Below, piece after piece: positions 22,883 through 38,872 of a DNA stretch of 64,000 nt (its first letter is position 1; every line of letters begins with the position of its first letter). The notes below the pieces were generated by a model that worked only from the letters and a program-made list of their open reading frames with translations, was not told where the DNA came from and searched no databases. The stretch lies in UHGV virus genome UHGV-1366990, one strand, 5' to 3'. The translations under genes were made by a program, and so were the position numbers. This DNA is from a virus.

Positions 22883-22925
22883 CTAAATACCCCTAGATGA
22901 AACGAACACATTTAGGGGTATTTGA
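22883..22925 (+). promoter_or_regulatory. late promoter CTAAATACCCC plus inverted partner GGGGTATTT just before start codon
   Basis: aactaaatacccctag...tttaggggtatttgaaATG; GGGG lies 9 nt before ATG. Confidence 0.45.
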
Positions 22926-22926
22926 A

Positions 22927-25900
22927 ATGGCTAATAAACCAACACAGCCTGTTTTCCCTCTCGGTCTGGCGGCTGAAGAGCAGTCTACTTTGGCTGGTGT
23001 CCTCAACACGGGTACGATTGAGCATGGACCAGATGCTGTCCTGACTTTACCCGAGGGTAATGCCAGCGCAGGACTCCCGTCTTCCGTTCGCTACAATGCC
23101 GACTCCGACGAATTTGAGGGCTTCTATGAAAATGGTGGATGGTTGCCGCTGGGTGGCGGTGGTATCCGCTGGGAAGTCCTTCCGCATGCCTCTACGACAA
23201 CACTCACTGAAGGGCGAGGCTATCTCATTAATAATACCACAGGGGCGTCTACAGTGGTTCTCCCGCTCCCTACGCGCATTGGTGATTCTGTTACTGTCTG
23301 TGACATGTATGGGAAGTTCTCTGTCTATCCACTGACCATTGACCCGAATGGAAAGGCTATGTATGGGAATGTGGAGGCCATGACGATCTCCACAGACAGC
23401 GCGACCGCAACGTTCACCTGGACTGGAGATGCTCGTGGCTGGATTATCACAGCAGGCGTCGGCCTGGGCCAGGGGCGTGTCTACAGCCGAAACATCTATA
23501 CCGATACTCTGGGCTTCCCAACCTCCGAAGTCACCCTGACAACCCAGCCACTTATCGTTGATGTCTATGTTGATGGTAAGCGCCTGGTGGAGTCCAAATA
23601 CTCCCTGAGTGGTTATGAAGTTCGCTTCAGCCCATCTCTTCCGGCTGGTGTTGAATTGCAGGTTGTTCAGTACGTTCCGATCCAATTGGGTCTCGGGTCT
23701 GGCGGGTCTGACAGCGGTATCACTCCTTGGGTCTACAACGGCGGTGCTGCAGTTGGCGGCGAAACCACTATCTCTGTTCCAGACTTGGCGCTGGGTGTTC
23801 CGTTCATCACCATCAACGGATATGCCAACTACCCTGGATTTGCGTACAGCTATGATGCAGGTGCCCACGTCCTCACCTTTGGTACTCCACTGGAAGCAGG
23901 CGACATGGTTGTCCTTATGCTGTCTGGTGAAGTTGCTGGGAATATCCCGGTCAACACCAGCGCAGGCTTCCTGGCGATAGAGGCACTGCGTCGCACCTAT
24001 GCCGAAGCGGGTTACAACCTGGTCGGAGGGAGTTTCGGTCGTGGTGGCACTGTCAACACAGCAACTGATGTTCTGCTCAATGAAGTGGATGGAAAGGCTT
24101 ATTCCTGGGGTGGAACTTTGCCTAAGACTGTGCCAGCTGATAGTACTCCCATCAGTAGTGGCGGGCTTGGAATTAGTGCGTGGGTGGATAGATCTGCTGC
24201 ACCTAATAGCTTTACTCAGACCGGAGCAGGAGCGGTTACAAGACCCGCTCAAGACAAAATGCGTGAAGAGTATAGCGTTCAGGACTTTGGGGCCAAAGTG
24301 AATAGTGGAGTGGATGAGACAGACAATATTAAGAAATGCCTTGCTCATGTAAAAGCGAAAGGCGGGAGAGCTAAAATTAACTTCCAGCCTGGGGAGTATA
24401 TGGTTCGTGGAACGGAGCTAATTGTCGATTTTTCTAATGTCATGTTGGAAGGTTATGGGGCCATACTTAAGCTTGTTGATAGCCCGACGGCGATTCAAGG
24501 CCCTGTGCTCAAGATTGCCCAGTACGGTGATCCAACTGTAAGGGGGACAGTTGAGAACGTCATAGTCAAAGGGTTCACGATTTATGGTAATAAGCTGAAT
24601 CAAATTCAAACCATGAACGCAGGTGGGGATGCGAACAATCCCGGATTTGTGTCTGAGGATGTCGTTAATTTGCATGTAGAGGACGTTATTGTCTATGATT
24701 GTGACGGTTATGGATTCCTCTTTGCTGGTTCAAACCTCCCCCATCGCAAGGGTGCGTACTTCAAGAACTGCTGGGCATTCGGTAACAACGTTGACGGATT
24801 TGATATCAAGGCAGGGTTTAACCATGTCACTCTCGACAGTTGCAGGTCGTGGGGTAACGGCTACGCGCCCATAGTTGCCCTACGCTCCGGAATGGGGTTC
24901 GATACCCGTGGCAAAGACGTTACCTTGATTAACTGCGTAGGTGGGGATGAGGGTAGCAACTATGCTGGCAACTTCCGCGTGCGCGAAAACGCAGAGGCGG
25001 GAATCTCATTCCTGGGGTGCCATAGCTATAACTCGCCTAATGGTACTTACGGCTTTATGTGCATAGGTGGTGGAAATACCAACGTGTCACTGATAGGCTG
25101 TACGTCTTCCAATGACGGAACCTCTATTAAGCATGAGCGAGGACACCTTACAGTAGTAGGGTTCAGGTCATGGAAGCCGAAGCTTCTGAGTATCCTGCAA
25201 TACCCGTCACAGTTTGTGTTGAGCACACTGACAGAAGCAGCTACATTCAGTTCCTATGGCGAATCGGTTACTATTTATCCTAGTGATTATCTCAGCGCTA
25301 CCGTAGGTTCTGAAATCAAGATCCCAACCGATGCTGGGACGATTTACCTCCTGGTTACACAGGCAGTTGCATCTACGCTGGTGTGTACGGTTCTGCGTGG
25401 AAATCTGGGGACGGCTGCGGCAGGAGCGAGTATCACTACTGTATCGACGGGAAGCCTGACGGTACATGGCGGAATATCTTATCAGTCTGCTGGTGATGCT
25501 GTTCAGTTTGCGTCTACCTTACAAACCCTTACTGATAGTTCAATGCCTGCAACTTTTAACGGGTTCGTTATAGAGGCACCAACCCGTTACGGAGTGAATT
25601 TTCAGGGTGGCGATGTGAGTTTTTATGGTGGCGCAATTCGAAACTGTGGCAAAGGGTCATCCTCCCCTGGATTTTTCGTCGGCAATGCAGCTACTGCTGA
25701 ATCGACATTCCGGTTGGACAGTGTATTCATGGGTAATGACGACAAATCTTTCACGCAGTCAGCTGGCATTCAGTTCCAGTCAACAAGCCTGGCGAAAGGG
25801 AGCGTTAGAGCGTGTAAATTCGCCGATAATGCCAACTCGCCAGTCATTGGCTCGCCATCTTCTGGTGTGCGGTTTGCAGACAATATCGGCTACACCAACG

Positions 25901-26166
25901 AGGGCACATTCTCTACAACAATTGATGTGACAACTGTTGGGGTGAAAACATTCTCAATTCCGCATGGGCTAAGCAAAGCACCTTCTGGTAAAGATGTGCA
26001 ACTGACCATCCAGCGGTCTGGGGCGGCGAATGACTACGTTCTCTCCACTCCGATGATTACCGGAGCAAGTTCTACAATTATTTCTGGGAGGGTGTCCGTA
26101 CTCACGGCTAGCGCAACCGCAGGTGAAGTCGCAACAGTAAACGCATTCATCAGCGCCAACCCATAG
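22927..26166 (+). CDS. tailspike protein 1 (beta-helix depolymerase-like)
   Basis: 1080 aa; Gly/Asn/Thr-rich repeats typical of right-handed beta-helix; internal YSWGGTLPKTV..STPISSGG module shared with tailspikes 2 and 4. Confidence 0.8.
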   Translation: MANKPTQPVFPLGLAAEEQSTLAGVLNTGTIEHGPDAVLTLPEGNASAGLPSSVRYNADSDEFEGFYENGGWLPLGGGGIRWEVLPHASTTTLTEGRGYLINNTTGASTVVLPLPTRIGDSVTVCDMYGKFSVYPLTIDPNGKAMYGNVEAMTISTDSATATFTWTGDARGWIITAGVGLGQGRVYSRNIYTDTLGFPTSEVTLTTQPLIVDVYVDGKRLVESKYSLSGYEVRFSPSLPAGVELQVVQYVPIQLGLGSGGSDSGITPWVYNGGAAVGGETTISVPDLALGVPFITINGYANYPGFAYSYDAGAHVLTFGTPLEAGDMVVLMLSGEVAGNIPVNTSAGFLAIEALRRTYAEAGYNLVGGSFGRGGTVNTATDVLLNEVDGKAYSWGGTLPKTVPADSTPISSGGLGISAWVDRSAAPNSFTQTGAGAVTRPAQDKMREEYSVQDFGAKVNSGVDETDNIKKCLAHVKAKGGRAKINFQPGEYMVRGTELIVDFSNVMLEGYGAILKLVDSPTAIQGPVLKIAQYGDPTVRGTVENVIVKGFTIYGNKLNQIQTMNAGGDANNPGFVSEDVVNLHVEDVIVYDCDGYGFLFAGSNLPHRKGAYFKNCWAFGNNVDGFDIKAGFNHVTLDSCRSWGNGYAPIVALRSGMGFDTRGKDVTLINCVGGDEGSNYAGNFRVRENAEAGISFLGCHSYNSPNGTYGFMCIGGGNTNVSLIGCTSSNDGTSIKHERGHLTVVGFRSWKPKLLSILQYPSQFVLSTLTEAATFSSYGESVTIYPSDYLSATVGSEIKIPTDAGTIYLLVTQAVASTLVCTVLRGNLGTAAAGASITTVSTGSLTVHGGISYQSAGDAVQFASTLQTLTDSSMPATFNGFVIEAPTRYGVNFQGGDVSFYGGAIRNCGKGSSSPGFFVGNAATAESTFRLDSVFMGNDDKSFTQSAGIQFQSTSLAKGSVRACKFADNANSPVIGSPSSGVRFADNIGYTNEGTFSTTIDVTTVGVKTFSIPHGLSKAPSGKDVQLTIQRSGAANDYVLSTPMITGASSTIISGRVSVLTASATAGEVATVNAFISANP

Positions 26167-26398: not shown

Positions 26399-28480
26399 AT
26401 GAGAACTCAATTTGATCAGGGTGGCGGTTCTACCGGGATCCTCACCAACAAAATGGCGATTGCTCGCCAGTTCGGCGTCAAACAGTCTGAAGTCATCTAT
26501 TTCTCTGCTGGAGTTGATTTATATGGGTACAAGGTCATCTACGACAAAACCACGCAGAGAGCTTACTCCTTACCTTCTGACATTACTGCTGGTACTACTG
26601 CCGTCAGTCTTAGTGTGGCTGCTGTACTCGTCCATTCAAAAGGCTCTGTAGACCTGGGGGCATTGGCCGTAACCCGTGGGGAATTTGTGACAGTTCCTGG
26701 TTCGTTTGCTCTGGGTGCGACGATCAATGTGAAGAACGAACTCCTCGAACGCAACGGTGTTCTCTATTATTGGGGAGGAGCGTTACCGAAGGTTGTTGCT
26801 CCTGGTTCCACTCCGGAAAGTGCGGGTGGTGTCGGGTCGGGCAAGTGGGTGGGTGTCGGGGATGCATCATTAAGGCAGCAGTTAGAGAGTGTCGCCATTT
26901 ATGACAAAGATTACCCAACTATTGCTGAGGCTTTCGGTCGTGCATATTACCTAGGGGCTGCTCTGGTTCTTACTTCGTCTAGAACCATCCGCATTCCAAG
27001 TGATGCACCTAGCCTGCAGTCGGTAGTCGATATCTGCGCAAGAATTAAATCTGACGTTTATCTTACTATTATTCTTGATGCTGGTTTTATCTTTACCGAG
27101 GAAACTTTAGTTGAAAAGCGTGATTGCTCATGGATGACTATTCAGTCAGATGATTCAGTGGTTAAGGTGTCTCCATCATTCTCTGGCATTAACTTAATTC
27201 ATGTTGTTAATTCGTTTGGACCCATCTGGGATATTCTTGCTGATATGGCGGGATCATCAGCAGGTAATGGCATTTATGTAAGACGAAACTCCGACATTGA
27301 AGTGCGCCCGGGAAAGGGAGTTATAAATGCCGTTAACACAGCAGTGGTATCTCTTCCATGCGGTATAGCTATTGTGGAAAGCTCCCGAGGGCATATTCCT
27401 TCCTCAAATTTTTCAGGAAATTACCGAAACCTTTGGGTATCGAAGTCCTCTCAGTGTAATGCGGAGGGGGGTAATTTTGATAATGCAACTGGGGACTTTG
27501 CAACCTATATTGTGCGAAACTCGCTGTGTCATCTCTCTTTGGCTACGGTAAACAACGCCGCACATAATGCTGTCTATGCAAACAACAGTCGCATTACCTT
27601 CCTGGAAGGGGAGGCAATTAATGCTGATACTGCACTTTATGCTGAATTTGCAGGTGTAATTTATACAAGGCCGCGTGATGGCAACATAACCAATATCTCA
27701 GGCTCTCGAATCAATGCAATTTCCGCCTCTAATGGTGGTGTTATTATTGCTGAGGGAATGACAATCTCTACAGCTTCTGGGTTTGGAATTACTGCCCGCG
27801 ACGGTGGGAAGGTCAGTGCGGTAGGGACGTCTGTTTTAGCTACCGGCACGGCGCTGAATGTTTATAACGAAGGGGAGGTAAATATAGCGGGGGATGGTAA
27901 CGTGATTTCCTCTTCTTCTACCGGGGTTAATGTAGTCAAGGCATACCAGGGAGGGAGAATTAACCTTGACGGAGCCGTAGTGACAGGTGGAACTAATGGC
28001 TTGCTCGCCGAGTCTGGTGGAACAATCCACGCGCGAGGTGTTAATATGTCTGGGCAGGCAGCAAACACAATACAAGCAACTGGTGGATACGTTAACGCTG
28101 ATAATTCCGTGCTTTCAAAATCTTCCTTTAATGTCGATGTTGTTTATGCTCGTCGCGGAGGCATTATTGATGCCAACTTTTCAACAATCACCGGAGGGAG
28201 AATCGGGGTGCATGCAGACGTTGGTGGAAGAGTATGTGTAAATAATTCCACTATTAATGGTGCATCAACTGGTGGTGTGCGGGCTACTGGCGGTGAGGTA
28301 TACGCGCAGTCAGCAATAATTCAAAACAACACCGGTAAGGATCTGACAGTTCTATCAGGGGGAGCACTACGCGCAGGCGGTGTAACGACAACTAATTCAT
28401 CTCCAGCCGGAACACCGAACCCCTCAGATGCAAATGCTGCTTTTAATACATTTGCTTCAGTGGGTTTTATTTTTGCATAA
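26399..28480 (+). CDS. tailspike protein 2
   Basis: 693 aa; N-terminal ~150 aa homologous to tailspike 4 N-terminus; beta-helix-like repeats; GAGG RBS. Confidence 0.8.
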   Translation: MRTQFDQGGGSTGILTNKMAIARQFGVKQSEVIYFSAGVDLYGYKVIYDKTTQRAYSLPSDITAGTTAVSLSVAAVLVHSKGSVDLGALAVTRGEFVTVPGSFALGATINVKNELLERNGVLYYWGGALPKVVAPGSTPESAGGVGSGKWVGVGDASLRQQLESVAIYDKDYPTIAEAFGRAYYLGAALVLTSSRTIRIPSDAPSLQSVVDICARIKSDVYLTIILDAGFIFTEETLVEKRDCSWMTIQSDDSVVKVSPSFSGINLIHVVNSFGPIWDILADMAGSSAGNGIYVRRNSDIEVRPGKGVINAVNTAVVSLPCGIAIVESSRGHIPSSNFSGNYRNLWVSKSSQCNAEGGNFDNATGDFATYIVRNSLCHLSLATVNNAAHNAVYANNSRITFLEGEAINADTALYAEFAGVIYTRPRDGNITNISGSRINAISASNGGVIIAEGMTISTASGFGITARDGGKVSAVGTSVLATGTALNVYNEGEVNIAGDGNVISSSSTGVNVVKAYQGGRINLDGAVVTGGTNGLLAESGGTIHARGVNMSGQAANTIQATGGYVNADNSVLSKSSFNVDVVYARRGGIIDANFSTITGGRIGVHADVGGRVCVNNSTINGASTGGVRATGGEVYAQSAIIQNNTGKDLTVLSGGALRAGGVTTTNSSPAGTPNPSDANAAFNTFASVGFIFA

Positions 28481-28494
28481 ATGGAATATTGAAT

Positions 28495-28788
28495 ATGAAA
28501 GATTTATCCCCTTTATCTCATGCAGTTTCAGTTATTACATTGCAGTGTTTATTCGGCATGCTTGCGGGGAAATGGCTTGAAGGAGGCGTAATGGGTTGCA
28601 TGTGGTTTATCGCCCGTGAGCACACCCAGGCTGAGTATCGCTGGCTCGCTCAGTTCGGCGCAGGGAAGCGCGCCAATATGCCGTGGTGGGGAGGGTTCTC
28701 CTGGCGCGCATGGAATGTGCCCAGTCTGCTCGACTGGCTTGTGCCGGTGCTGGCGTGCACTGTCGTTTATTTCGTAGCCACACTTTAA
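28495..28788 (+). CDS. small 3-TM membrane protein, paralog A (conserved AREHTQAEYRW..MPWxGGF..LLDWLVPV)
   Basis: 97 aa from ATG (track start 28489 is TTG); about 60% identical to 31525..31818. Confidence 0.55.
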   Translation: MKDLSPLSHAVSVITLQCLFGMLAGKWLEGGVMGCMWFIAREHTQAEYRWLAQFGAGKRANMPWWGGFSWRAWNVPSLLDWLVPVLACTVVYFVATL

Positions 28789-29040
28789 CTCCTGGCGGGA
28801 TTATTGATAGGTATCACCGCATTGATCTGCACTGCCTTTAAAACTACTGTGTATAAAACAGTAAAAGGAGTGCAGATCATGCCCCGCCGTCACGACATTC
28901 ACGCCGCATTTGTGGCCGCAATACAGCTAAACACAAAGGGCTGCCGATGCTTACGCACAGAAGACTTTATCCGCGAACTGGCAAAGGTCCACTGGTATTT
29001 CAAATAAATGACGAACCTTGATAGGAACAGAAGCCCTTCA

Positions 29041-29080
29041 CTAAATACCCCATATTGGCAAATCCTTTATGGGGTATTTT
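29041..29080 (+). promoter_or_regulatory. late promoter CTAAATACCCC with inverted partner GGGGTATTT
   Basis: cactaaataccccatattggcaaatcctttatggggtattttcatATG. Confidence 0.45.
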
Positions 29081-29083
29081 CAT

Positions 29084-31513
29084 ATGTCCAGACCAGTCGA
29101 AAGCATCTTTGGAGCCGTGGTCACCGCTCCTCACCAGATTCCATACACATACACAGCCGTAGGTGGCGAAACGTCCATCTCTCTCCCCGTATTCCCTGTC
29201 ACAGGCCTGGTCACTATCGGTGGCGGCGTACAAGTCCCACTCGACAACTATGAGATAGAAGGGAACGTCCTTCATCTTGGTGGACCTCTTGAACCGGGCG
29301 ACGTTGTGTACTGTCTGTTTGACAAGGTACTGTCTCCAGAAGGTCAGAACTCTACCACTCGCATCTACAAATTCAAATCAGTGGGTGGAGAAACTTCATT
29401 CACTCCAGACTTCACTTCCTATGGCGTGCAGTCGCTGTACATTGATGGGAAATACCAGACGCCGATTGATGACTACACCTACAACAAAGAGACTGGCGTT
29501 GTCAGCCTGAAGACCGCAATTGTCGGGGCTGGGAAATGGGTTGTGGCTGAACTGTATGTACAACAGAATTACCCGGCGCTGGCAGCTCCTGATGGTGCCG
29601 ATATGATCGGGGTTCCAACAACAGAAACTTCTTTGGGGGAATTGCTTTCATCTGATGATATGGCCATCAAATATGGTTATGTCAACCCAACAATCAGTGA
29701 AAGGCTTGGGCGTGAAGGGGCGAAGGTTGTTTTGGTCGGCGACAGTCTGAGCAGTTTCTTCAACATAGATTCTGTGAACACAGCGTCTATCTTTGAGTCT
29801 TACCTGCGCCGCAAGATCAGAGAATTCAATGGTACGGCGAAGTTCTACAACAGAGCCATCGGTGGCAAGCGTTACTATGACTTGGGTAGAAATGAACCGC
29901 CTCTTGATACTCTGACGAGCGGATACCCTTGGTATACAGACACGTCCAAGCGTTGGATGACTTACTTGGACGATCTTAAACCAGATGTGATCTTCTTAGC
30001 CTTTGGTATGAACGATGGTCCGGGATGGGACGTAGGTAACTTTCAGCAAGATAACTTCTTCAAGATGATGGAAGAACTTAAGTCCATCAGTTCAAGCCCT
30101 GAGTTGGTGTTCTGTACCAATATTCTTCCTTCTACAACACATGTTGATACCGCAGCAGAAGACCAGCAGCAGGGGCGTGATGCGATGGCTGGCTGGACAA
30201 GAAGTTTTGCCAGAAAGGCGGGATATAGCTTCCTTGATCTTCATAGACGTTTCAAATGCTTACGTGATGGTGTAGACCCGTGCATGGCTAGTTATGCCCG
30301 TAAAACCATTCAGAAAGTGGTGTCGCTTCCGTATGTACACACCGCCCAGTGTGATATGTATTCGGCTCGGGTAATTTTGATCGATCCAGCCGTCGCGACC
30401 ACAGGTATTAGATTCCAGTTGTCGAAGTATTCTAACAACTTCATGACCTTGAAATACGATACCACGACATCTCGCTGGATAACGACCGCATATACAGCTT
30501 CTTCGTCTTCCGTTGGCGTCGCTGACCAGAGTTCTATGCCTGGCCCAGCCCCGGCTGAGGGAACAGAGATATACTTCACCATGAACGGTGACGTTGTCGT
30601 AATAACCATCGGCATCAACACATATCCGGTGTTCAGCCGTAATATTGTGCGCTTCGGTGGTAAATTCTTCCCTGAAATCGGCGGAACTGGTGATATTCGG
30701 ATTGACATGATTGAGGGTACGCCCATCCCTGTTAAATCAGAGCTGACGGATTATGATTGCTACAACACCGACGGCGATGGCGGGAATGGCATCAACCACC
30801 CAACAGCCAAAGCGAGTTCCCGAATTTATACTCGCGTTGTTGACGACTGGTTCAGTATGCTTGCTGGGTCTGTGAGTTCCAGAAAGCAGGTGCTGGACAT
30901 TGACTTTGTCAACGGCACTGTTGTGGTGAGAAACCCGTATAGCCCAGAACTATCTTGTGAAGCCAAAATCAGCGCCGCCCTGACTTTTATCAACGGATCA
31001 CTCGCATACCAACGCGACGCTCAGGGACGTGTCATTGGAGCGGTATTTGGGGCTACGAACAGAGCATATGTTGACCAGGCGTTCTTCAATGCTTATGCGG
31101 GGAATTACAGCCAGCTCACATTTGAAGTAGAGTTCGTTGCCCCGGGCGCCCAGGCATACATCTGCACGTTCGGGGAAAACACCACAAGTGACCGAATCAT
31201 GGCTCAGGTCACAAGTGATTTACGCCCAAGAATCACGGCAGCCGTGGCATCACAAGCCAGTGACCTTTTCGGTTCGGCTTCGTTCCCATTTGTTGCTGGC
31301 CGGAAATACGCTTTGAAATTCTCTTTAGATTGTGAGAATTCGGTCGCGCGAATGTGGGGGCAGGACAACTCCGCGCGAGGTAACATCAACGTTACCCCTA
31401 TAACCGCCATATCTCCGGCGACATTATCCAAGCTGAAGTTGGGTTATGCGTCAACTGGAACATTTGGTGTTGATGTCGTGGTTTCAAGAATCAGAGTCTG
31501 GTTCTCCAACTGA
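29084..31513 (+). CDS. tailspike protein 3 with SGNH/GDSL-hydrolase-like motifs (putative glycan esterase)
   Basis: 810 aa; VVLVGDSLSSFFN (GDSL block I) and FLAFGMNDG (GxND block III) in central region. Confidence 0.8.
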   Translation: MSRPVESIFGAVVTAPHQIPYTYTAVGGETSISLPVFPVTGLVTIGGGVQVPLDNYEIEGNVLHLGGPLEPGDVVYCLFDKVLSPEGQNSTTRIYKFKSVGGETSFTPDFTSYGVQSLYIDGKYQTPIDDYTYNKETGVVSLKTAIVGAGKWVVAELYVQQNYPALAAPDGADMIGVPTTETSLGELLSSDDMAIKYGYVNPTISERLGREGAKVVLVGDSLSSFFNIDSVNTASIFESYLRRKIREFNGTAKFYNRAIGGKRYYDLGRNEPPLDTLTSGYPWYTDTSKRWMTYLDDLKPDVIFLAFGMNDGPGWDVGNFQQDNFFKMMEELKSISSSPELVFCTNILPSTTHVDTAAEDQQQGRDAMAGWTRSFARKAGYSFLDLHRRFKCLRDGVDPCMASYARKTIQKVVSLPYVHTAQCDMYSARVILIDPAVATTGIRFQLSKYSNNFMTLKYDTTTSRWITTAYTASSSSVGVADQSSMPGPAPAEGTEIYFTMNGDVVVITIGINTYPVFSRNIVRFGGKFFPEIGGTGDIRIDMIEGTPIPVKSELTDYDCYNTDGDGGNGINHPTAKASSRIYTRVVDDWFSMLAGSVSSRKQVLDIDFVNGTVVVRNPYSPELSCEAKISAALTFINGSLAYQRDAQGRVIGAVFGATNRAYVDQAFFNAYAGNYSQLTFEVEFVAPGAQAYICTFGENTTSDRIMAQVTSDLRPRITAAVASQASDLFGSASFPFVAGRKYALKFSLDCENSVARMWGQDNSARGNINVTPITAISPATLSKLKLGYASTGTFGVDVVVSRIRVWFSN

Positions 31514-31524
31514 CGGAGTCTTTA

Positions 31525-31818
31525 ATGAACATTGACATATCTCCTATTCTTCACGCCCTGGTCGCTACCGCCCTGCAAGCAATTGCGGGGTTACTCTTGG
31601 GGGACTGGGTAATCGGAGCAGTAATGGGCTGCACGTTCTTCGCCGCCCGTGAGCACACTCAGGCTGAATACAGATGGATCTCCCAGTCCGGTAAGGGTAA
31701 GCGATCCAACATGCCTTGGTATGGCGGGTTTGACTACCGGGCGTGGGATATCCCGAGCCTCCTGGACTGGTTGGTTCCTGTAGTTGGATGTACAGCGTTG
31801 TATTTCATAGCAGCATAA
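31525..31818 (+). CDS. small 3-TM membrane protein, paralog B
   Basis: 97 aa; GGAG RBS; same conserved core as 28495..28788. Confidence 0.55.
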   Translation: MNIDISPILHALVATALQAIAGLLLGDWVIGAVMGCTFFAAREHTQAEYRWISQSGKGKRSNMPWYGGFDYRAWDIPSLLDWLVPVVGCTALYFIAA

Positions 31819-31855
31819 GGCATTTGCCTGATTTATAAGAATATCAGAGGTGATT

Positions 31856-33541
31856 ATGAAACAGTTATTCAATCAAGGCGGGCAGGGTTCTACGGGAATC
31901 ATGTCCAACAAACAGGCGATTGCTCGGCGCTTCGGTGTCAAGCAATCAGAGGTCGTATACTTCTCCAGCGGTCAGGCGCTGACCGGGTTTAAGGTTATCT
32001 ACGATAAGCCATCTCAACGTGCCTATGCGCTGCCCTCTAACCTGGGGTCTGTAACTGCCACCACTTTGGTGGACGGCCTGCTCACGCACTCTGGAGGCAC
32101 TGTTGACCTGGGTGCACTGGCGGTACTGCGAGAAGAATTCGTTACTCTGGTGGAGAACTTCACGTCTGGGTTCACTATCCGTGTTAAGAATGAACTGGTG
32201 AGCGACGGTCAGTCTCTGTACCGCTGGGATGGGGCGTTACCAAAGACAGTGAATGCGGGTGGTTCGGTTTCTGCGGATGGGGTTGGCAAGGGTAAATGGG
32301 TTGAAACGAGCACAAGTAATCTCAGTTATTTTCCTAAACCGATAACTTGGGCCGGGTTTGCTGGAGGCGCAGCCTGGGATGGAGTAACTAATGACAGCAT
32401 CCCCTATCAGGCCGCCGCGCAATCTGGGCGAAAGTTTTTAATGCCTTATGGTGTGGGGAACATACCGGATTATTCTGTAGGCTTGTATTCTCCCAACTTC
32501 TCCGTTCTGGGTGAGGCTGAGCAGTTGGGTTCGTTACAAAATCCAGTTGACGATTTTCGACCGTCACACACAGACACAAAATATTCAAAGTATCACGAAA
32601 CGGATCCAGCATCTAATCGGTGGGATTCCTGTTCTATACATACAATTGTTAAATGTCCTCAGGGCGATGCTAATCCAAAAGGAAATGCGGCAGCTGTAAC
32701 TGGGTATGTAAGAGCAATTAGCAGCGAGGGTGGTGATCATGTTGGCGTACATGGTAGAGCAGAAGGTGATACCAGTTACGACTTCGGTACTGGGATGGGG
32801 TTGTGGGGTGGATGGCTGTCAGCCGTTTACAGACCTAATACAGGCTCAGCTGGGAAGCTAATAAAGTCTATTATTGGTTGTGAGATTGACGTGCAAAATG
32901 ATGGACCACATGCACAAAACCCCAATCCGGCTGGTGTTGGTGAGCTGCGTGGTCTCGCGGTAGGGAATACTGGCACCGGCCATCTTAATCAAGGCGTTGA
33001 TGTATTCTCTAGCAATAGCGGTGCGCGTGGAAGGTGGTGGATGGGCGTTCACGTGCGTGCTAATTCCATTGTAGGAAGACATCTGGTATCATCAGAGGAG
33101 GAAGTTGGTAATGCAATGGTGATTGCTGGAGCGGCATCGTCAGGGACGCGTTACGGCGGATTAAAATTTAGTAAATATCCCTACACAGCGGTAGGACAAG
33201 GAGGTCATCTTTCTTATGGAATTGATTTCAGGGAGGCAACAATTCGCTTACAAAACGCGATTGTAATGGGTCCTCAGCACCGGATTACATGGGATCCTGA
33301 CACTGCAAAGGGTGTTGCGGTAGAGACAGAGGGAGGGGATGTAATTACTTTCCGGGGATATAATATAGCCATAAATAACTCCAAAGTTTTGGGGGCTAGA
33401 CAAACTGGTATCTTTAATATGTCGGGGATAGCAGATGGAACCTCATACAATACAGAAACCGTTACACTTGTAAATCTTGCCAGATACCTAAAGAAGGTAA
33501 CTGATGCATTAATATTTCATGGCCTTATTGGCCCAACTTGA
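31856..33541 (+). CDS. tailspike protein 4
   Basis: 562 aa; N-terminus MKQLFNQGGQGSTGIMSNKQAIARRFGVKQSEV parallels tailspike 2; AGAGG RBS. Confidence 0.75.
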   Translation: MKQLFNQGGQGSTGIMSNKQAIARRFGVKQSEVVYFSSGQALTGFKVIYDKPSQRAYALPSNLGSVTATTLVDGLLTHSGGTVDLGALAVLREEFVTLVENFTSGFTIRVKNELVSDGQSLYRWDGALPKTVNAGGSVSADGVGKGKWVETSTSNLSYFPKPITWAGFAGGAAWDGVTNDSIPYQAAAQSGRKFLMPYGVGNIPDYSVGLYSPNFSVLGEAEQLGSLQNPVDDFRPSHTDTKYSKYHETDPASNRWDSCSIHTIVKCPQGDANPKGNAAAVTGYVRAISSEGGDHVGVHGRAEGDTSYDFGTGMGLWGGWLSAVYRPNTGSAGKLIKSIIGCEIDVQNDGPHAQNPNPAGVGELRGLAVGNTGTGHLNQGVDVFSSNSGARGRWWMGVHVRANSIVGRHLVSSEEEVGNAMVIAGAASSGTRYGGLKFSKYPYTAVGQGGHLSYGIDFREATIRLQNAIVMGPQHRITWDPDTAKGVAVETEGGDVITFRGYNIAINNSKVLGARQTGIFNMSGIADGTSYNTETVTLVNLARYLKKVTDALIFHGLIGPT

Positions 33542-33552
33542 TAGAGGTATCT

Positions 33553-33708
33553 ATGAATCAACAAACAATTCGCAACATCATGGAGTTCATGATGCGTGTT
33601 CAGTTAACTGGGCAAGAGGTTCCTGCATTCAACGTTGCAATGAACGCCTTGCAAGCCGAATTAGATAGCCAAGACAAATCCATTACTGAGGTAGAAGATG
33701 GCTCTAAA
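33553..33708 (+). CDS. small ORF (51 aa)
   Basis: Below ORF-track cutoff; AGAGG RBS before ATG; manual coordinates. Confidence 0.3.
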
Positions 33709-33942
33709 AAATGAGAATACTGGTGGGCTATATATCCGAGTAGAACTTCCGCGAGCACATGGTAAGTACCGCGTGCAGTTCGATCTAATTCAGTATGTAG
33801 GCCATCCCATTACTGGAGAAAGGTAGAGGTGGGTCGCGAAACCATGGAATGCGACTACGACCTTGATGGTCCTAACGTGTTCGAGCAATGCTACAATTAC
33901 ACCAAGACCCAAGTCCCGTATCAAACTGTTGACTGTTAACAG

Positions 33943-33970
33943 AATGCCTCCACGGAGGCATTTTTATTTC
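33943..33970 (+). terminator. intrinsic terminator (gcctccacggaggc + tttttattt)
   Basis: Perfect hairpin followed by T-run. Confidence 0.5.
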
Positions 33971-33991
33971 TATCTGCCCACCAGTCGTATA

Positions 33992-33999
33992 CTAAATAT
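33992..33999 (+). promoter_or_regulatory. late-promoter-like motif CTAAATAT
   Basis: 35 nt upstream of ATG 34034; shows the 33863 ORF-track start is not the real start. Confidence 0.4.
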
Positions 34000-34033
34000 C
34001 TCTATAAACGGCACCTTATCGTGGAGCACTAAA

Positions 34034-37000
34034 ATGCAAGAAATGAACCTCAACCGCCGCCCATATTGGGATGACTGGAATCCAGAGAAGCGTTTTTCGC
34101 GCATCCTATTCCGTCCGGCACCTATCAAAGTTCAGACGCGTGAACTGAACCAGATACAGACCATCTTCCAGGATCAACTGGAGAAACTTGGCAACCATCT
34201 GTTCAAAGACGGTTCAATGGTTATCCCCGGCGGTCTAACGATCACCAACACTGCTGTGTCCATGAAGTTCACTCTGGCTGGTGGTAGTGAGTTCACTGAT
34301 CTGGAAGGTATCTCCGAACTCTATGTTCTGGGCAAGGACAACAATGCGAAAGCACGCGTCCTGTCCTTGGAACGTTATCCAGCTGAGCCGGATACAATGT
34401 ATGCCATCTTAGAGATTACTGAAAGTGGTAGTTCAGACGGTTTCGAAGCTGGTGACAATCTATATTTCAACACCTATGACGTGAACGATAACTTCATCCG
34501 TGTCGGCTATGGTGTGGCCGATACTGTTGGCGGTTCGATTGTCGCTCGCATGACAAAGGGTGTTTATTTCGTTCGTGGTATGTTCCTGGATGTTGAACCA
34601 ACCACTTTGATCGTAGACAACGCATCGAACTCTACATCTCACCGCATTGGCTTCAAAGTTACAGAAACAATCGTGACCGAAGCAGAAGATGAAAGTCTGT
34701 TCTCCAATGCTCAGGGTACTCCGAACTCTAAAGCCCCTGGTGCGCATCGCCTGCGCGTCGACCTCGTGTTGTCTCGCTACGGTTATGATGAAGAAGTGGC
34801 CGACTTCGTTGAACTGGCGAAGGTGAAAGACGGTCGTGTTCAGTCCATGGTCACCCAGTCAACGTACAACATCCTCGAAGACGCCATGGCTCAGCGTACC
34901 TATGAGACCAACGGGGATTACAACGTCTCTACTCACCAGATCGACCTACGCGAACATCTGAAACAGAACAACAACGGTGGCGTATACACTCCGGCCGAAG
35001 GTGGCGACGAAAGCAAATTCGTGGCGGTTATGAAGCCAGGCATTTCCTACGTTCGTGGTCGTCGTATCGAAAACCTCGGCGAAGAGCTGGTCATAATTGA
35101 CAAAGCCCGTGACACTGATATCCTGAACAACAACCCTGTGGCTGTTTCGACTGGCAACTATCTGGTGTCCAAGAACTCCAAAGGGGTTCCGGTTGTCTCC
35201 CGCACAATCCGCTACAAGTTCCTGAACGCATCCAGCGATGTGCAGGCCACCGCCCTGCTGATTTCGGCAGAGCGCTCTGGTACTGAATTCCGTCTGTATA
35301 TGCGCGACCTGGTTGTGACTGGGGACATGGGTACGGTGACCAAAGTCGCTTATGAAGAAAGCGGTACAACGATGTTCTCTTGCGAACTGGAGTCCAATCA
35401 GTTCAGCCAGAGTTCAGCAATTGACCTGATCTTCCCTCTGCCTGTATTTGGTGTGAAGACTCTAGCACCTACAGGCACCATCGACATCAACTACACCGTC
35501 CTGCGGTCAAACAAGATCACGTTGAACGCCGCTGGTGCAGGCTCAATCTCTGCTCCTCTGGGTTACAGCTTCAGCCCTGAGTTTTCACTGTACTCCGCAG
35601 CGAAGGCAGATGGCACTGCAGCTCAGTTTGATATCTCTTCGGGACTGTCCCTGGCTGGTACTCCGGTTGGTTCAGCACTACAGATTTCCCTGGGCGCGGG
35701 GTACGCCAACCAGTCTATCAACCTGTTGACATTGATGGTCCGCACCACAGCGACGATCAAGACCAAGACTGTTACCGAAGCCACCGAGACTGTGACGTTT
35801 ACTGCGGCGGCCAGCGCACAACTTGGGAACCATGATGGTTACAAGCTGATCAGCGTGAAGAACGCAAATGGCGCTGATGTCACCTCTAACTTCACTCTGG
35901 ACGGCGGCCAGCGTGATGCTGCATACTACCTTTCTAACCTCATATCGTCCGCTGGAGCCATTTCAGGGACGTTCACAGTGGTGTACCAGTACTTCGCTCA
36001 CAGTTCTGGTGATTTCTTCACAGCGGACTCCTATTCGTCCATCAACTACCCAGACATCCCGAACTATGTTTCATCCAGTTCTGGTACTGTGTATGGGTTG
36101 GCCGACAGTCTGGACTTCCGTCCCAAGATCACCAGCGGAGCGTCTGACACGGACATGGTTCGCCCGAACACCGCGATCATCCTAGATGCAGAGTACTATC
36201 TGCCTCGTATTGATGCTGTGTATCTGGCAGACAACGGTGTGTTCAACGTTGCTCGTGGTGTGAGTTCCAACAACCTGGCTTCCCCTGCGATTCCAGACAA
36301 CGGTATGCGTCTGTATGAATTGATGATCCCACCATACACGGCCAACATTGACGACATCCAGATTCGTACTATCGACAACCGCCGCTACACGATGCGCGAT
36401 ATCGGTAAACTGGAGACCCGTATCTCCAATGTCGAATATTACACCTCACTGTCTCAGCTGGAATCCTCGGCGATGTCACAACAGGTATTCGATCCAATTA
36501 CTGGCAACCCGCGCTTCAAGAACGGTATCGCAGCAGACCCGTTCAAAGACTTCCGTCTGATCGACGATTTGTCTGCAGACTGGGTGGGTTCAATCGACAC
36601 TGACAATGGTCGCCTACGCCCGTTTGTTCAGCAGAACGCGATTGACCTGACGCCAGTCGGTTGGAACAACGTTCAGGATGGCATGGTTGTATGCAACTAC
36701 ACCCGTGAGATCTCTGTCCGCCAGGACTATGCAACCACGACCATCAACGTGAACCCGTATGCAGTATTCAACTGGGAAGGTTTCCTGAAACTGAACCCGA
36801 CTACTGATTACTGGTTTGAGAACTACTATGTTACTCCACGTGTGATCAACGAAACGATCAACACCCGTGGTGCGATCAAAGAAGGTTCTGTGTATGGCAC
36901 ATGGCGTACTGTGTCCGTGTCTGAGCGTGTGTGGGAACCACATGGCGCAGGTGGTGTATGGTGGGGCTATCGCTACCGCACGACTGTGTCCACCCGTGAC

Positions 37001-38872
37001 ATTACCACGTACACGTACACCGACAGGACGACCACCACCATGACTGGTGAGCAGATCGTTGAAACGCAGGTAATCCCATACATGCGCAAAACGAACATCA
37101 ACTTCGAAGCCACAGGTCTGCGTCCGTTCACTCGTGTGTATCCGTTCTTCTCTGGACGTGATGTGAGCGCGTACTGTACCCCAAACGGTGGTGTACTGGG
37201 TGGTGCGTTGAACACTGACGCCAACGGTAACATCAAAGGTGTGTTTGCGGTTCCTCAGAACGAGACTATCAAGTTTAACACGGGTGACAACGTTTTCCGT
37301 CTGACTGACAGTCCTGTGGATAGCAAGTCTGCTGATGATACCCTGACCAATGCTGAGGCTGTTCATAAGTCCTTCGGCAAGAAACAGGGCATCCAGAAGA
37401 CTTATGTCAATACTCGCGTCCTGGGATACACTGCGACCAAGTCTACGGAAAACAAAACAGAGACGGTTGAAGTCGCGAAGTGGAAAGATCCTATCGCCCA
37501 GTCCTTCATGGTTGCCACCAATATCGGCGGCGAATACATCGAAGGGATTGAAGTCTTCTTCTCCACCAAGTCCCGTGATATCCCGATCACTCTGGAAATC
37601 CGTGAGATGAGCAATGGTCTGCCAGCGACGACTGTCGTCACTCGTAAGACTCTGAATCCATCAGAAGTTTCCACCTCCACAGACTCTTCTGTGCCGACGA
37701 TGTTCAAGTTTGATTATCCTGTGTATCTGCAGGCGCAGACTGAGTTCGCGATCGTACTCCTGGCCAACACTCAGGACTACAACGCATACATCGCAGAGAT
37801 GGGCAAGAAGAACTTGCTGACCAACGAGTTCATTGCCAAACAGCCGTACACTGGCGTGTTCTTCACATCTTCAAATGGTACGACCTGGACTCCAAACCAG
37901 ACTGCCGATATGAAGTTCCGTGTATATCGCTGTAACTTCTCCGCTGGTTCAAACATCGTGACCTTCGATGCTAAAGTCGGTCCGAAGATCCGCCCTCTGG
38001 GTCTGAATACCGTGAAATGTGTCAACGGTTCTTCAACTGTTACTGTGTACGCTCCGGGGCATGGCCTGACTGCGGGTGAAAGTGTTACTCTGTCTGGGTT
38101 GACAGGTGGTTGCGGTTTCACTCCTGAGCAACTGAACGCTCAACACACTGTGACTGATGCGACGTTCACGACATTCAAATTCGTTCTGAGTTCCAACGCC
38201 GACTCCGACGGTCAGATTGGTGGTGAGGCGGCTTCTTTCCTAGGCAACTACTTGGTAGACATGTTCTACGCAAGCGTCACCAATTCAGCCCTGGAAGGAT
38301 CTGTGTTGAAACTGGAATACCGCTATCGCGATGCGACCTCCAACTCATTCTCTGATTGGGTTGAGTTCGAATCCGATACGGACGTGTCTCTGCCGACGGA
38401 AGGTATCTATCGTCAGGTGGGCGACTTCCAGGTTCGTGCAACCATGACTCGCAACGAGAGTAATGTCTACACGGCTCCAATGATCGACGGTGATGATTTC
38501 ACTATCATCTTCAACACCTACGGTGTGGATCCGTTTGAAGATGTGTTCAGCTATGTGACCAAGGATATCGGATTCGATAACCCTTGCACCACTCTGAAGC
38601 AATACTTCGGCGCGATGCTACCTTCTCAGTCTTCAATGACTGTGCAGGTTAAACTGCTACGCGCAGGTCAGGAGATGGATAACGTGGCATGGGAAACTGT
38701 GACACCGACATCCCCTCTGGTCAATGACGGTTCTGCATTCTTCGAATATGAGTATGACAAGACTGTAGACAGCACCAATCCTTTCGTTGGCCTGAAGATC
38801 CGCCTGCTGGTCAGAGGCAACCGCATAGCACCGCCGTCATTCAAAGATTTCCGTTTGATTGCTCTGGCATAA
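34034..38872 (+). CDS. large virion structural protein (1612 aa; tail fibre / baseplate-associated)
   Basis: Very long ORF under late-type promoter; Thr/Ser/Gly/Asn/Val-rich, beta-rich composition. Confidence 0.7.
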   Translation: MQEMNLNRRPYWDDWNPEKRFSRILFRPAPIKVQTRELNQIQTIFQDQLEKLGNHLFKDGSMVIPGGLTITNTAVSMKFTLAGGSEFTDLEGISELYVLGKDNNAKARVLSLERYPAEPDTMYAILEITESGSSDGFEAGDNLYFNTYDVNDNFIRVGYGVADTVGGSIVARMTKGVYFVRGMFLDVEPTTLIVDNASNSTSHRIGFKVTETIVTEAEDESLFSNAQGTPNSKAPGAHRLRVDLVLSRYGYDEEVADFVELAKVKDGRVQSMVTQSTYNILEDAMAQRTYETNGDYNVSTHQIDLREHLKQNNNGGVYTPAEGGDESKFVAVMKPGISYVRGRRIENLGEELVIIDKARDTDILNNNPVAVSTGNYLVSKNSKGVPVVSRTIRYKFLNASSDVQATALLISAERSGTEFRLYMRDLVVTGDMGTVTKVAYEESGTTMFSCELESNQFSQSSAIDLIFPLPVFGVKTLAPTGTIDINYTVLRSNKITLNAAGAGSISAPLGYSFSPEFSLYSAAKADGTAAQFDISSGLSLAGTPVGSALQISLGAGYANQSINLLTLMVRTTATIKTKTVTEATETVTFTAAASAQLGNHDGYKLISVKNANGADVTSNFTLDGGQRDAAYYLSNLISSAGAISGTFTVVYQYFAHSSGDFFTADSYSSINYPDIPNYVSSSSGTVYGLADSLDFRPKITSGASDTDMVRPNTAIILDAEYYLPRIDAVYLADNGVFNVARGVSSNNLASPAIPDNGMRLYELMIPPYTANIDDIQIRTIDNRRYTMRDIGKLETRISNVEYYTSLSQLESSAMSQQVFDPITGNPRFKNGIAADPFKDFRLIDDLSADWVGSIDTDNGRLRPFVQQNAIDLTPVGWNNVQDGMVVCNYTREISVRQDYATTTINVNPYAVFNWEGFLKLNPTTDYWFENYYVTPRVINETINTRGAIKEGSVYGTWRTVSVSERVWEPHGAGGVWWGYRYRTTVSTRDITTYTYTDRTTTTMTGEQIVETQVIPYMRKTNINFEATGLRPFTRVYPFFSGRDVSAYCTPNGGVLGGALNTDANGNIKGVFAVPQNETIKFNTGDNVFRLTDSPVDSKSADDTLTNAEAVHKSFGKKQGIQKTYVNTRVLGYTATKSTENKTETVEVAKWKDPIAQSFMVATNIGGEYIEGIEVFFSTKSRDIPITLEIREMSNGLPATTVVTRKTLNPSEVSTSTDSSVPTMFKFDYPVYLQAQTEFAIVLLANTQDYNAYIAEMGKKNLLTNEFIAKQPYTGVFFTSSNGTTWTPNQTADMKFRVYRCNFSAGSNIVTFDAKVGPKIRPLGLNTVKCVNGSSTVTVYAPGHGLTAGESVTLSGLTGGCGFTPEQLNAQHTVTDATFTTFKFVLSSNADSDGQIGGEAASFLGNYLVDMFYASVTNSALEGSVLKLEYRYRDATSNSFSDWVEFESDTDVSLPTEGIYRQVGDFQVRATMTRNESNVYTAPMIDGDDFTIIFNTYGVDPFEDVFSYVTKDIGFDNPCTTLKQYFGAMLPSQSSMTVQVKLLRAGQEMDNVAWETVTPTSPLVNDGSAFFEYEYDKTVDSTNPFVGLKIRLLVRGNRIAPPSFKDFRLIALA

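Follow-up and report, generated by a model that had tools for sequence, protein, structure and literature searches.

The 64,000-nucleotide stretch of the virus genome UHGV-1366990 analysed here, which we call the window, carries at positions 29084..31513 (+ strand) a gene for a tailspike protein (TSP) of 809 amino acids plus a stop codon. From the list of open reading frames (ORFs) and an alignment to CBA120 TSP2 (PDB 6w4q), we identify this gene as a TSP2-type tailspike with a body built around a predicted SGNH esterase domain. By sequence, the window can be placed in Agtrevirus (Ackermannviridae, Aglimvirinae).

The enclosing ORF runs from 29069 to 31513 on the + strand. An in-frame ATG at 29069 would add five residues, MGYFH, for which the CBA120 TSP2 alignment offers no equivalent, whereas residue 1 counted from the Met at 29084 (MSRPVE...) pairs with residue 1 of that protein. 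We therefore prefer 29084, the start given by an earlier note made from the letters of this DNA alone; the upstream ATG is probably not used. All residue numbers below count from the Met at 29084. Protein P0001 of a public assembly is identical to the spike so defined.

Residues 1-165 (29084..29578, +) form the N-terminal anchor. Residues 1-162 align to residues 1-162 of CBA120 TSP2 (E 9e-65), and the anchor matches phrog_13781 and phrog_24271, both of tail spike/fiber N-termini. On this homology it would correspond to the N-terminal part of TSP2 by which the spike is docked into the branched TSP complex, and the name "tailspike 3" used in the earlier note has to give way to TSP2 in the nomenclature of the family. 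CBA120 TSP2 (ORF211) has the same anchor and the same position in the tailspike cluster, but its body is a beta-helix glycosidase, unlike the one found here. At the DNA level the anchor is closer to a Kuttervirus (83% identity) than to TSP2 of the Agtrevirus AV101 (73%). A linker or neck follows at residues 166-205 (29579..29698, +), marked by a low predicted local distance difference test score (pLDDT) at model residues 1-30.

Domains of the spike body

A structure prediction for residues 166-809, made with a 31-sequence alignment, reached a mean pLDDT of 87.7 and a predicted template modelling score (pTM) of 0.86. In this model the body falls into an esterase domain in two parts, a domain nested between them, and a C-terminal domain. 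The first part of the SGNH domain, residues 206-396 (29699..30271, +), alternates strands and helices and holds the sequence blocks I-III of the fold. An all-beta domain at residues 397-550 (30272..30733, +) is inserted into the esterase at the loop of block V. The remainder of the SGNH domain, residues 551-597 (30734..30874, +), contributes the loop that carries block V and closes with a long helix at model residues 410-430. A beta-sandwich of LamG/ConA-like type, all-beta and of high pLDDT, takes up residues 598-809 (30875..31510, +). Structure prediction had been suggested in the earlier note as the check on its esterase claim; the predicted model contains the SGNH fold, a three-layer alpha/beta/alpha arrangement with a central parallel sheet.

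The assignment of the second esterase part draws on the model and on a splice test. When the nested domain was removed from the sequence, coverage of the Pfam family PF13472 grew from 2-155 to 2-174 of 178 and the score rose from 48.8 to 55.3 bits. Its removal restores a full-length GDSL match. The span of about 200-400 proposed earlier for the esterase holds for blocks I-III, which lie inside it, and fails for block V, which is found far outside at residues 566-574. Block V follows at a distance of some 180 residues, owing to the domain of about 155 residues that interrupts the esterase domain.

Fold searches place these domains among carbohydrate-active and carbohydrate-binding proteins. The top structural matches of the esterase domain are carbohydrate acetyl esterases, not lipases, and include acetyl-xylan, rhamnogalacturonan and sialate esterases. 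The beta domains resemble LamG, neurexin and agrin domains, the carbohydrate-binding module CBM40 of sialidases and the jelly rolls of clostridial toxin Hc domains, and their best Foldseek matches are tandem LG or galectin pairs. Aligned as a whole chain with Foldseek, the model matches 4qnl (E 4.8e-8), which is gp63.1 of Escherichia phage G7C, and 9d84, the Gp48 spike of Shigella phage B2. By sequence, the nested and C-terminal beta domains match no Pfam family, and the esterase part has no significant match among PDB sequences in phmmer and profile searches.

Catalytic residues and predicted function

Residues 218-392 match Lipase_GDSL_2 (PF13472) of Pfam at E 1.5e-12, and the score of 48.8 bits exceeds the cut-off of 32.9; Lipase_GDSL (PF00657), at 25.6 bits, likewise clears its cut-off of 23.6. 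The GDSL block I and the block III that the earlier note had picked out, VVLVGDSLSSFFN (residues 215-227, nucleotides 29726-29764) and FLAFGMNDG (residues 304-312, nucleotides 29993-30019), are indeed there, in a region scoring above the PF13472 cut-off and with invariant key residues. Within them, block I reads GDSLS (residues 219-223, 29738..29752, +), with Ser221 (29744-29746) as the predicted nucleophile, and block III reads GMND (residues 308-311, 30005..30016, +), with Asn310 as a predicted oxyanion-hole residue. Block II, AIGG (residues 258-261, 29855..29866, +), would contribute Gly261 to the oxyanion hole. Block V is present as the variant GGNGINHPT (residues 566-574, 30779..30805, +), and His572 (30797-30799) is its predicted general base. 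In the alignment of 31 homologues, G219, D220, S221, G261, G308, M309, N310, G567, N568, N571 and H572 are invariant. Five residues, S221, N310, R373, D385 and H572, are also invariant in 116 cluster representatives that are 24-73% identical to the query, and H572 alone is invariant among the six histidines of the spike.

Among characterised proteins, gp66 of Pectobacterium phage Possum (Cbunavirus, Schitoviridae) is the nearest relative, a tail fiber deacetylase that aligns with residues 204-586 at 27% identity over 412 columns (E 1e-27; tblastn and BLASTP). Possum gp66 and the spike have in common the GDS, GG and GMND motifs, the nested beta domain and a GGNGINHP block replacing DxxH. They differ in the C-terminal domain and in the N-terminal attachment region, which in Possum serves an N4-like virion with the adapter gp67. 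As established by nuclear magnetic resonance, gp66 takes the 2-O-acetyl group off rhamnose in the O-polysaccharide of its host and leaves the chain intact (PMC9569702). Since the identity is only 27%, the substrate of the present spike would surely be a different one.

We propose that the spike is an active polysaccharide O-acetyl esterase and, judging mainly from homology, put the probability of this reading at roughly 80%. The esterase module that the earlier note had assigned to this tailspike is supported by the Pfam GDSL match, the invariant residues and the homology to the proven deacetylase Possum gp66. In the mechanism we envisage, which draws on homology and fold matches, the gene product would be the TSP2 subunit of a branched complex of four tailspikes, docked onto it by its first ~165 residues, and the remainder would act as a receptor-binding module around an SGNH-fold carbohydrate O-acetyl esterase. 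The nested and C-terminal lectin-like sandwiches would bind an O-acetylated O-antigen or capsule chain, and Ser221, activated by His572, would attack the acetyl ester. The amides of Ser221 and Gly261, together with Asn310, would stabilise the oxyanion, and acetate would leave with the glycan backbone unbroken. Through repeated binding and deacetylation the virion could work its way through the polysaccharide to the outer membrane, as has been demonstrated for G7C gp63.1 and Possum gp66.

Several observations weigh against this reading. The canonical DxxH of block V occurs nowhere in the protein. The earlier note had called for a downstream DxxH; the histidine is present instead as part of GGNGINHPT, and the position three residues before it, His-3, is Gly569, which is variable in the 31-sequence alignment. 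The expected Ser-His-Asp arrangement is thus borne out for Ser221 and His572 and not for the aspartate. Because the canonical aspartate is absent, the catalytic apparatus would be either a Ser-His dyad or one that uses another acid. Candidates for such an acid are D385, which is invariant, and D398, which is nearly so, in the 116 representatives, as well as D395, invariant in the 31 closer relatives; by conservation, each is a possible alternative. SGNH enzymes with Ser-His dyads exist, namely in carbohydrate esterase family 2. Carbohydrate binding by the beta domains is also read from fold similarity only: in the predicted model the nested lectin/LamG-like jelly roll is a probable carbohydrate-binding module, and the C-terminal sandwich is probably a second such module or a trimer-capping domain. 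Finally, when the family profile was compared with G7C gp63.1 by hhalign, only the Tail_spike_N region of other family members aligned.

The missing aspartate would also suit a catalytically dead SGNH scaffold, in which case the spike would only bind polysaccharide, through its lectin-like domains or its former active site; the two jelly-roll domains could bind on their own. We nevertheless consider a dead scaffold very unlikely. Ser221, Asn310 and His572 are invariant in the 116 relatives, although identity otherwise amounts to only about 25-30%, a pattern expected of an active enzyme, and Possum gp66 is active with the same GGNGINHP block and without DxxH (PMC9569702). A comparison with E. 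coli TesA adds to the assignment of the first three blocks. In an hhalign run of the spliced-domain alignment against an approximate TesA sequence (probability 46%), blocks I-III align, with Ser221 opposite S10 and G261 opposite the block II "ISG", and block V is not reached. Because that alignment stopped short of it, the block V assignment is based on the splice test with Pfam, on the invariance of the residues and on the match in fold.

The fold matches bear on a different use of the active site. A non-carbohydrate ester could be the target, as for a lipase or phospholipase acting on outer-membrane lipids or on the acyl chains of lipid A, or the domain could transfer acyl groups, as the SGNH domains in PatB and OatA do. 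Either would be hard to square with the top structural matches, which are carbohydrate acetyl esterases and not lipases, with the two lectin-like modules that flank the active domain, and with the sole characterised homologue, which takes O-acetyl groups off O-polysaccharide (PMC9569702). A transferase would, moreover, presumably lack an acetyl donor as an extracellular virion protein, and we hold both variants to be most improbable. The same low standing applies to a bifunctional spike combining the esterase with a glycosidase or lyase in a beta-sandwich or at the trimer interface. Gp20 of epsilon15, which joins an endorhamnosidase to an SGNH "petal", offers a precedent, and the nested and C-terminal domains here have no assigned family. 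Pfam, the model and the fold searches, however, revealed neither a beta-helix nor any domain known from glycosidases or lyases; the beta domains look like lectin or carbohydrate-binding folds of a non-catalytic kind, and G7C gp63.1 and Possum gp66 both leave the backbone intact.

An O-acetyl esterase on a spike would be in established company. The earlier note had called this an uncommon receptor-destroying strategy; esterase spikes are in fact already known in several phages, so that the mechanism class is established and current understanding is unchanged. G7C gp63.1 deacetylates O-antigen, and this deacetylation is needed for infection. The likeness of our model to gp63.1 (4qnl) is one of fold only. 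Profile comparison detected no sequence homology to its esterase, a PDB profile search reaching 4qnl only at the Tail_spike_N region. In gp63.1 the SGNH domain is uninterrupted and block V is the canonical WDTTHP (DxxH), whereas that of the present spike is split and lacks DxxH; the gp63.1 anchor is of the TSP1/gp66-type Tail_spike_N kind, whereas the one here is of TSP2 type. Within the Ackermannviridae, PMC3220722, citing Pickard 2010, describes Vi01 Tsp2, a TSP2, as targeting the Vi capsule with an acetyl esterase domain. As given there, that esterase is of the DUF303, 9-O-acetylesterase type, a family other than that of the split PF13472 domain found here. Among the receptor-binding proteins of Klebsiella prophages, SGNH is one of the most frequent folds, and two such proteins have been shown to be active esterases (PMC13123978).

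What sets the present spike apart is mildly unusual: a nested lectin-like domain that splits off block V together with the missing DxxH aspartate, both also seen in Possum gp66, and a near-identical copy in an unrelated myovirus. A split SGNH domain with a nested lectin module and no DxxH aspartate raises the possibility that carbohydrate esterases of this kind are a phage-specific family of their own, whose catalytic apparatus is non-canonical. None of the Agtrevirus spike bodies treated in the literature covered is presented as an esterase, and the TSP repertoire of the genus would gain an esterase-type receptor-binding module. Such a spike would tie infection to O-acetylation of the host glycan. 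It would also form no depolymerisation halo, and screens for depolymerases would miss spikes of this kind.

Spread of the body among phage groups

We scanned the catalytic unit (residues 205-600) with HMMER against 1.84 billion cluster representatives and obtained 294 clusters at E <= 1e-10. In the majority, whose proteins measure about 400-1200 amino acids, the match extends through the nested domain and block V. Homologues occur in Phapecoctavirus (Escherichia phage anhysbys and contigs L005 and L007), in the N4-like contig L008, in the T7-like Kayfunavirus BDX03P1 and in Aeromonas. Others lie in the tail-fibre slot of a P2-like prophage (L011) and beside lysis genes in two podovirus-like E. 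coli prophages (L009 and L010). At E <= 1e-5, the body is absent from all other Ackermannviridae records in the phage collection. The distribution points to the receptor-binding module being a mobile cassette that moves between unrelated groups of phages. A megablast search of 5,426 complete E. coli genomes with the body returned no match, so that prophage relatives give no pointer to the host glycan or O-serotype.

The closest copies are found in Phapecoctavirus. Window positions 29591-31648 are 96.9% identical in DNA to anhysbys (L002, 6013-8070), and positions 29575-31805 are 94.8% identical to the Phapecoctavirus-like contig L005 (6507-8737). The corresponding anhysbys protein, anhysbys_262, is annotated as hypothetical; its body is 97% identical, and its N-terminus and virion context differ. 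The 5' recombination boundary, at about 29575-29591, coincides with the anchor-body junction near residue 165-170, which is the usual swap point for spike modules. Given the 95-97% DNA identity to Phapecoctavirus genomes, the sequences indicate that the body and the small ORF behind it were exchanged very recently between two unrelated myovirus groups. The passage of an entire spike body between Ackermannviridae and Phapecoctavirus at 97% DNA identity bears on the prediction of host range and on its engineering with chimeric tailspikes.

Phapecoctaviruses also encode a free-standing protein of about 102 amino acids that is homologous to the anchor motif of Ackermannviridae TSP1 and TSP3. Its ORF lies just after the esterase spike slot (L002 8149-8457, L005 8826-9134 and L007 7345-7656) and has 72% DNA identity to window positions 31907-32008; the protein may be an adaptor or a remnant. 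The anhysbys copy, annotated "tail spike protein 3 [Sh19]", was considered as a scar of transfer from Ackermannviridae. We rejected this idea, as the ~102-residue ORF is also present in other Phapecoctavirus-like contigs.

The tailspike cluster and its small ORFs

The ORF that trails the TSP2 gene (31525..31818, +) encodes a predicted three-helix membrane protein of 97 amino acids belonging to phrog_1443. It lies inside the 94.8%-identical stretch shared with L005 (29575-31805) and was co-transferred with the esterase body; the anhysbys copy is truncated to 42 amino acids. A second small ORF, at 28489-28788, is 60% identical to it, is likewise of phrog_1443 and predicted to have three membrane helices, and also follows a spike gene. 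A homologue of the trailing ORF follows the SGNH spike in an E. coli prophage. Wherever a copy was found outside the window (7 of 7 contexts), it lies directly 3' of a receptor-binding gene, the body of which is SGNH, pectate-lyase-like or without a family match on record. These contexts belong to Ackermannviridae and Phapecoctavirus as well as to podo-like and lambdoid prophages, and phage 21 and lambda-like phage records carry a homologue; four other SGNH loci have no copy of the small ORF. One could imagine the esterase body and the trailing ORF as a two-gene cassette moving between phage families, in which the enzyme edits the surface glycan from outside, and the strongly conserved membrane protein works from within the infected or lysogenic cell on a step of glycan display that is itself conserved, excluding competitors or keeping progeny off debris. 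We regard this scheme as speculative and, on balance, doubtful.

The surroundings of the spike gene are those of an Agtrevirus. Positions 20000-44000 of the window are about 97% identical to AV101, RPN242, YX22 and others, with matches covering about 53-59% of that stretch, and outside the spike bodies the window is 97% identical to AV101. In AV101 the baseplate genes are followed by four spike genes and then by VriC. The neighbours in the window fit this order, with a cluster that reads TSP4-TSP3-TSP2-TSP1. TSP4 (22897-26166) has an N-terminus matching that of CBA120 TSP4 (TSP4-N, PDB 7rej, E 7e-135), and the TSP3-type neighbour (26399-28480) has a Tail_spike_N domain. The TSP1-type spike (31850-33541, +; 563 amino acids) has a Tail_spike_N anchor, its N-terminus matching 4oj5 at E 4e-48, and a body with neither a Pfam domain nor a solved-structure match by sequence. 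The region at 33863-38872 aligns with VriC of AV101.

Some minor features flank the TSP2 start. The last ~45 nucleotides before it (29040-29083) are 91-100% identical in about 170 Ackermannviridae genomes, and the ~550 nucleotides preceding them have no match. In AV101, a stretch similar to 29040-29083 also precedes the spike gene upstream of the TSP2 gene. A conserved late promoter or ribosome-binding site region is one possible reading of the 29040-29083 stretch; a recombination anchor used in swapping spikes is another. An ORF of 42 amino acids (MPRRHDIHAAF...HWYFK; 28879-29007, +) with a good Shine-Dalgarno sequence, AAAGGAG, occupies part of the interval from the first small membrane ORF to TSP2; the stretch of this ORF has no megablast match in the phage collection. 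Lastly, contig L004 (Logan SRR25011001) is 99% identical to window positions 29019-34000, and its sequence upstream of TSP2 resembles the one that lies downstream of TSP1 in the window, which suggests either a relative with another arrangement of the spike cluster or an assembly artefact.

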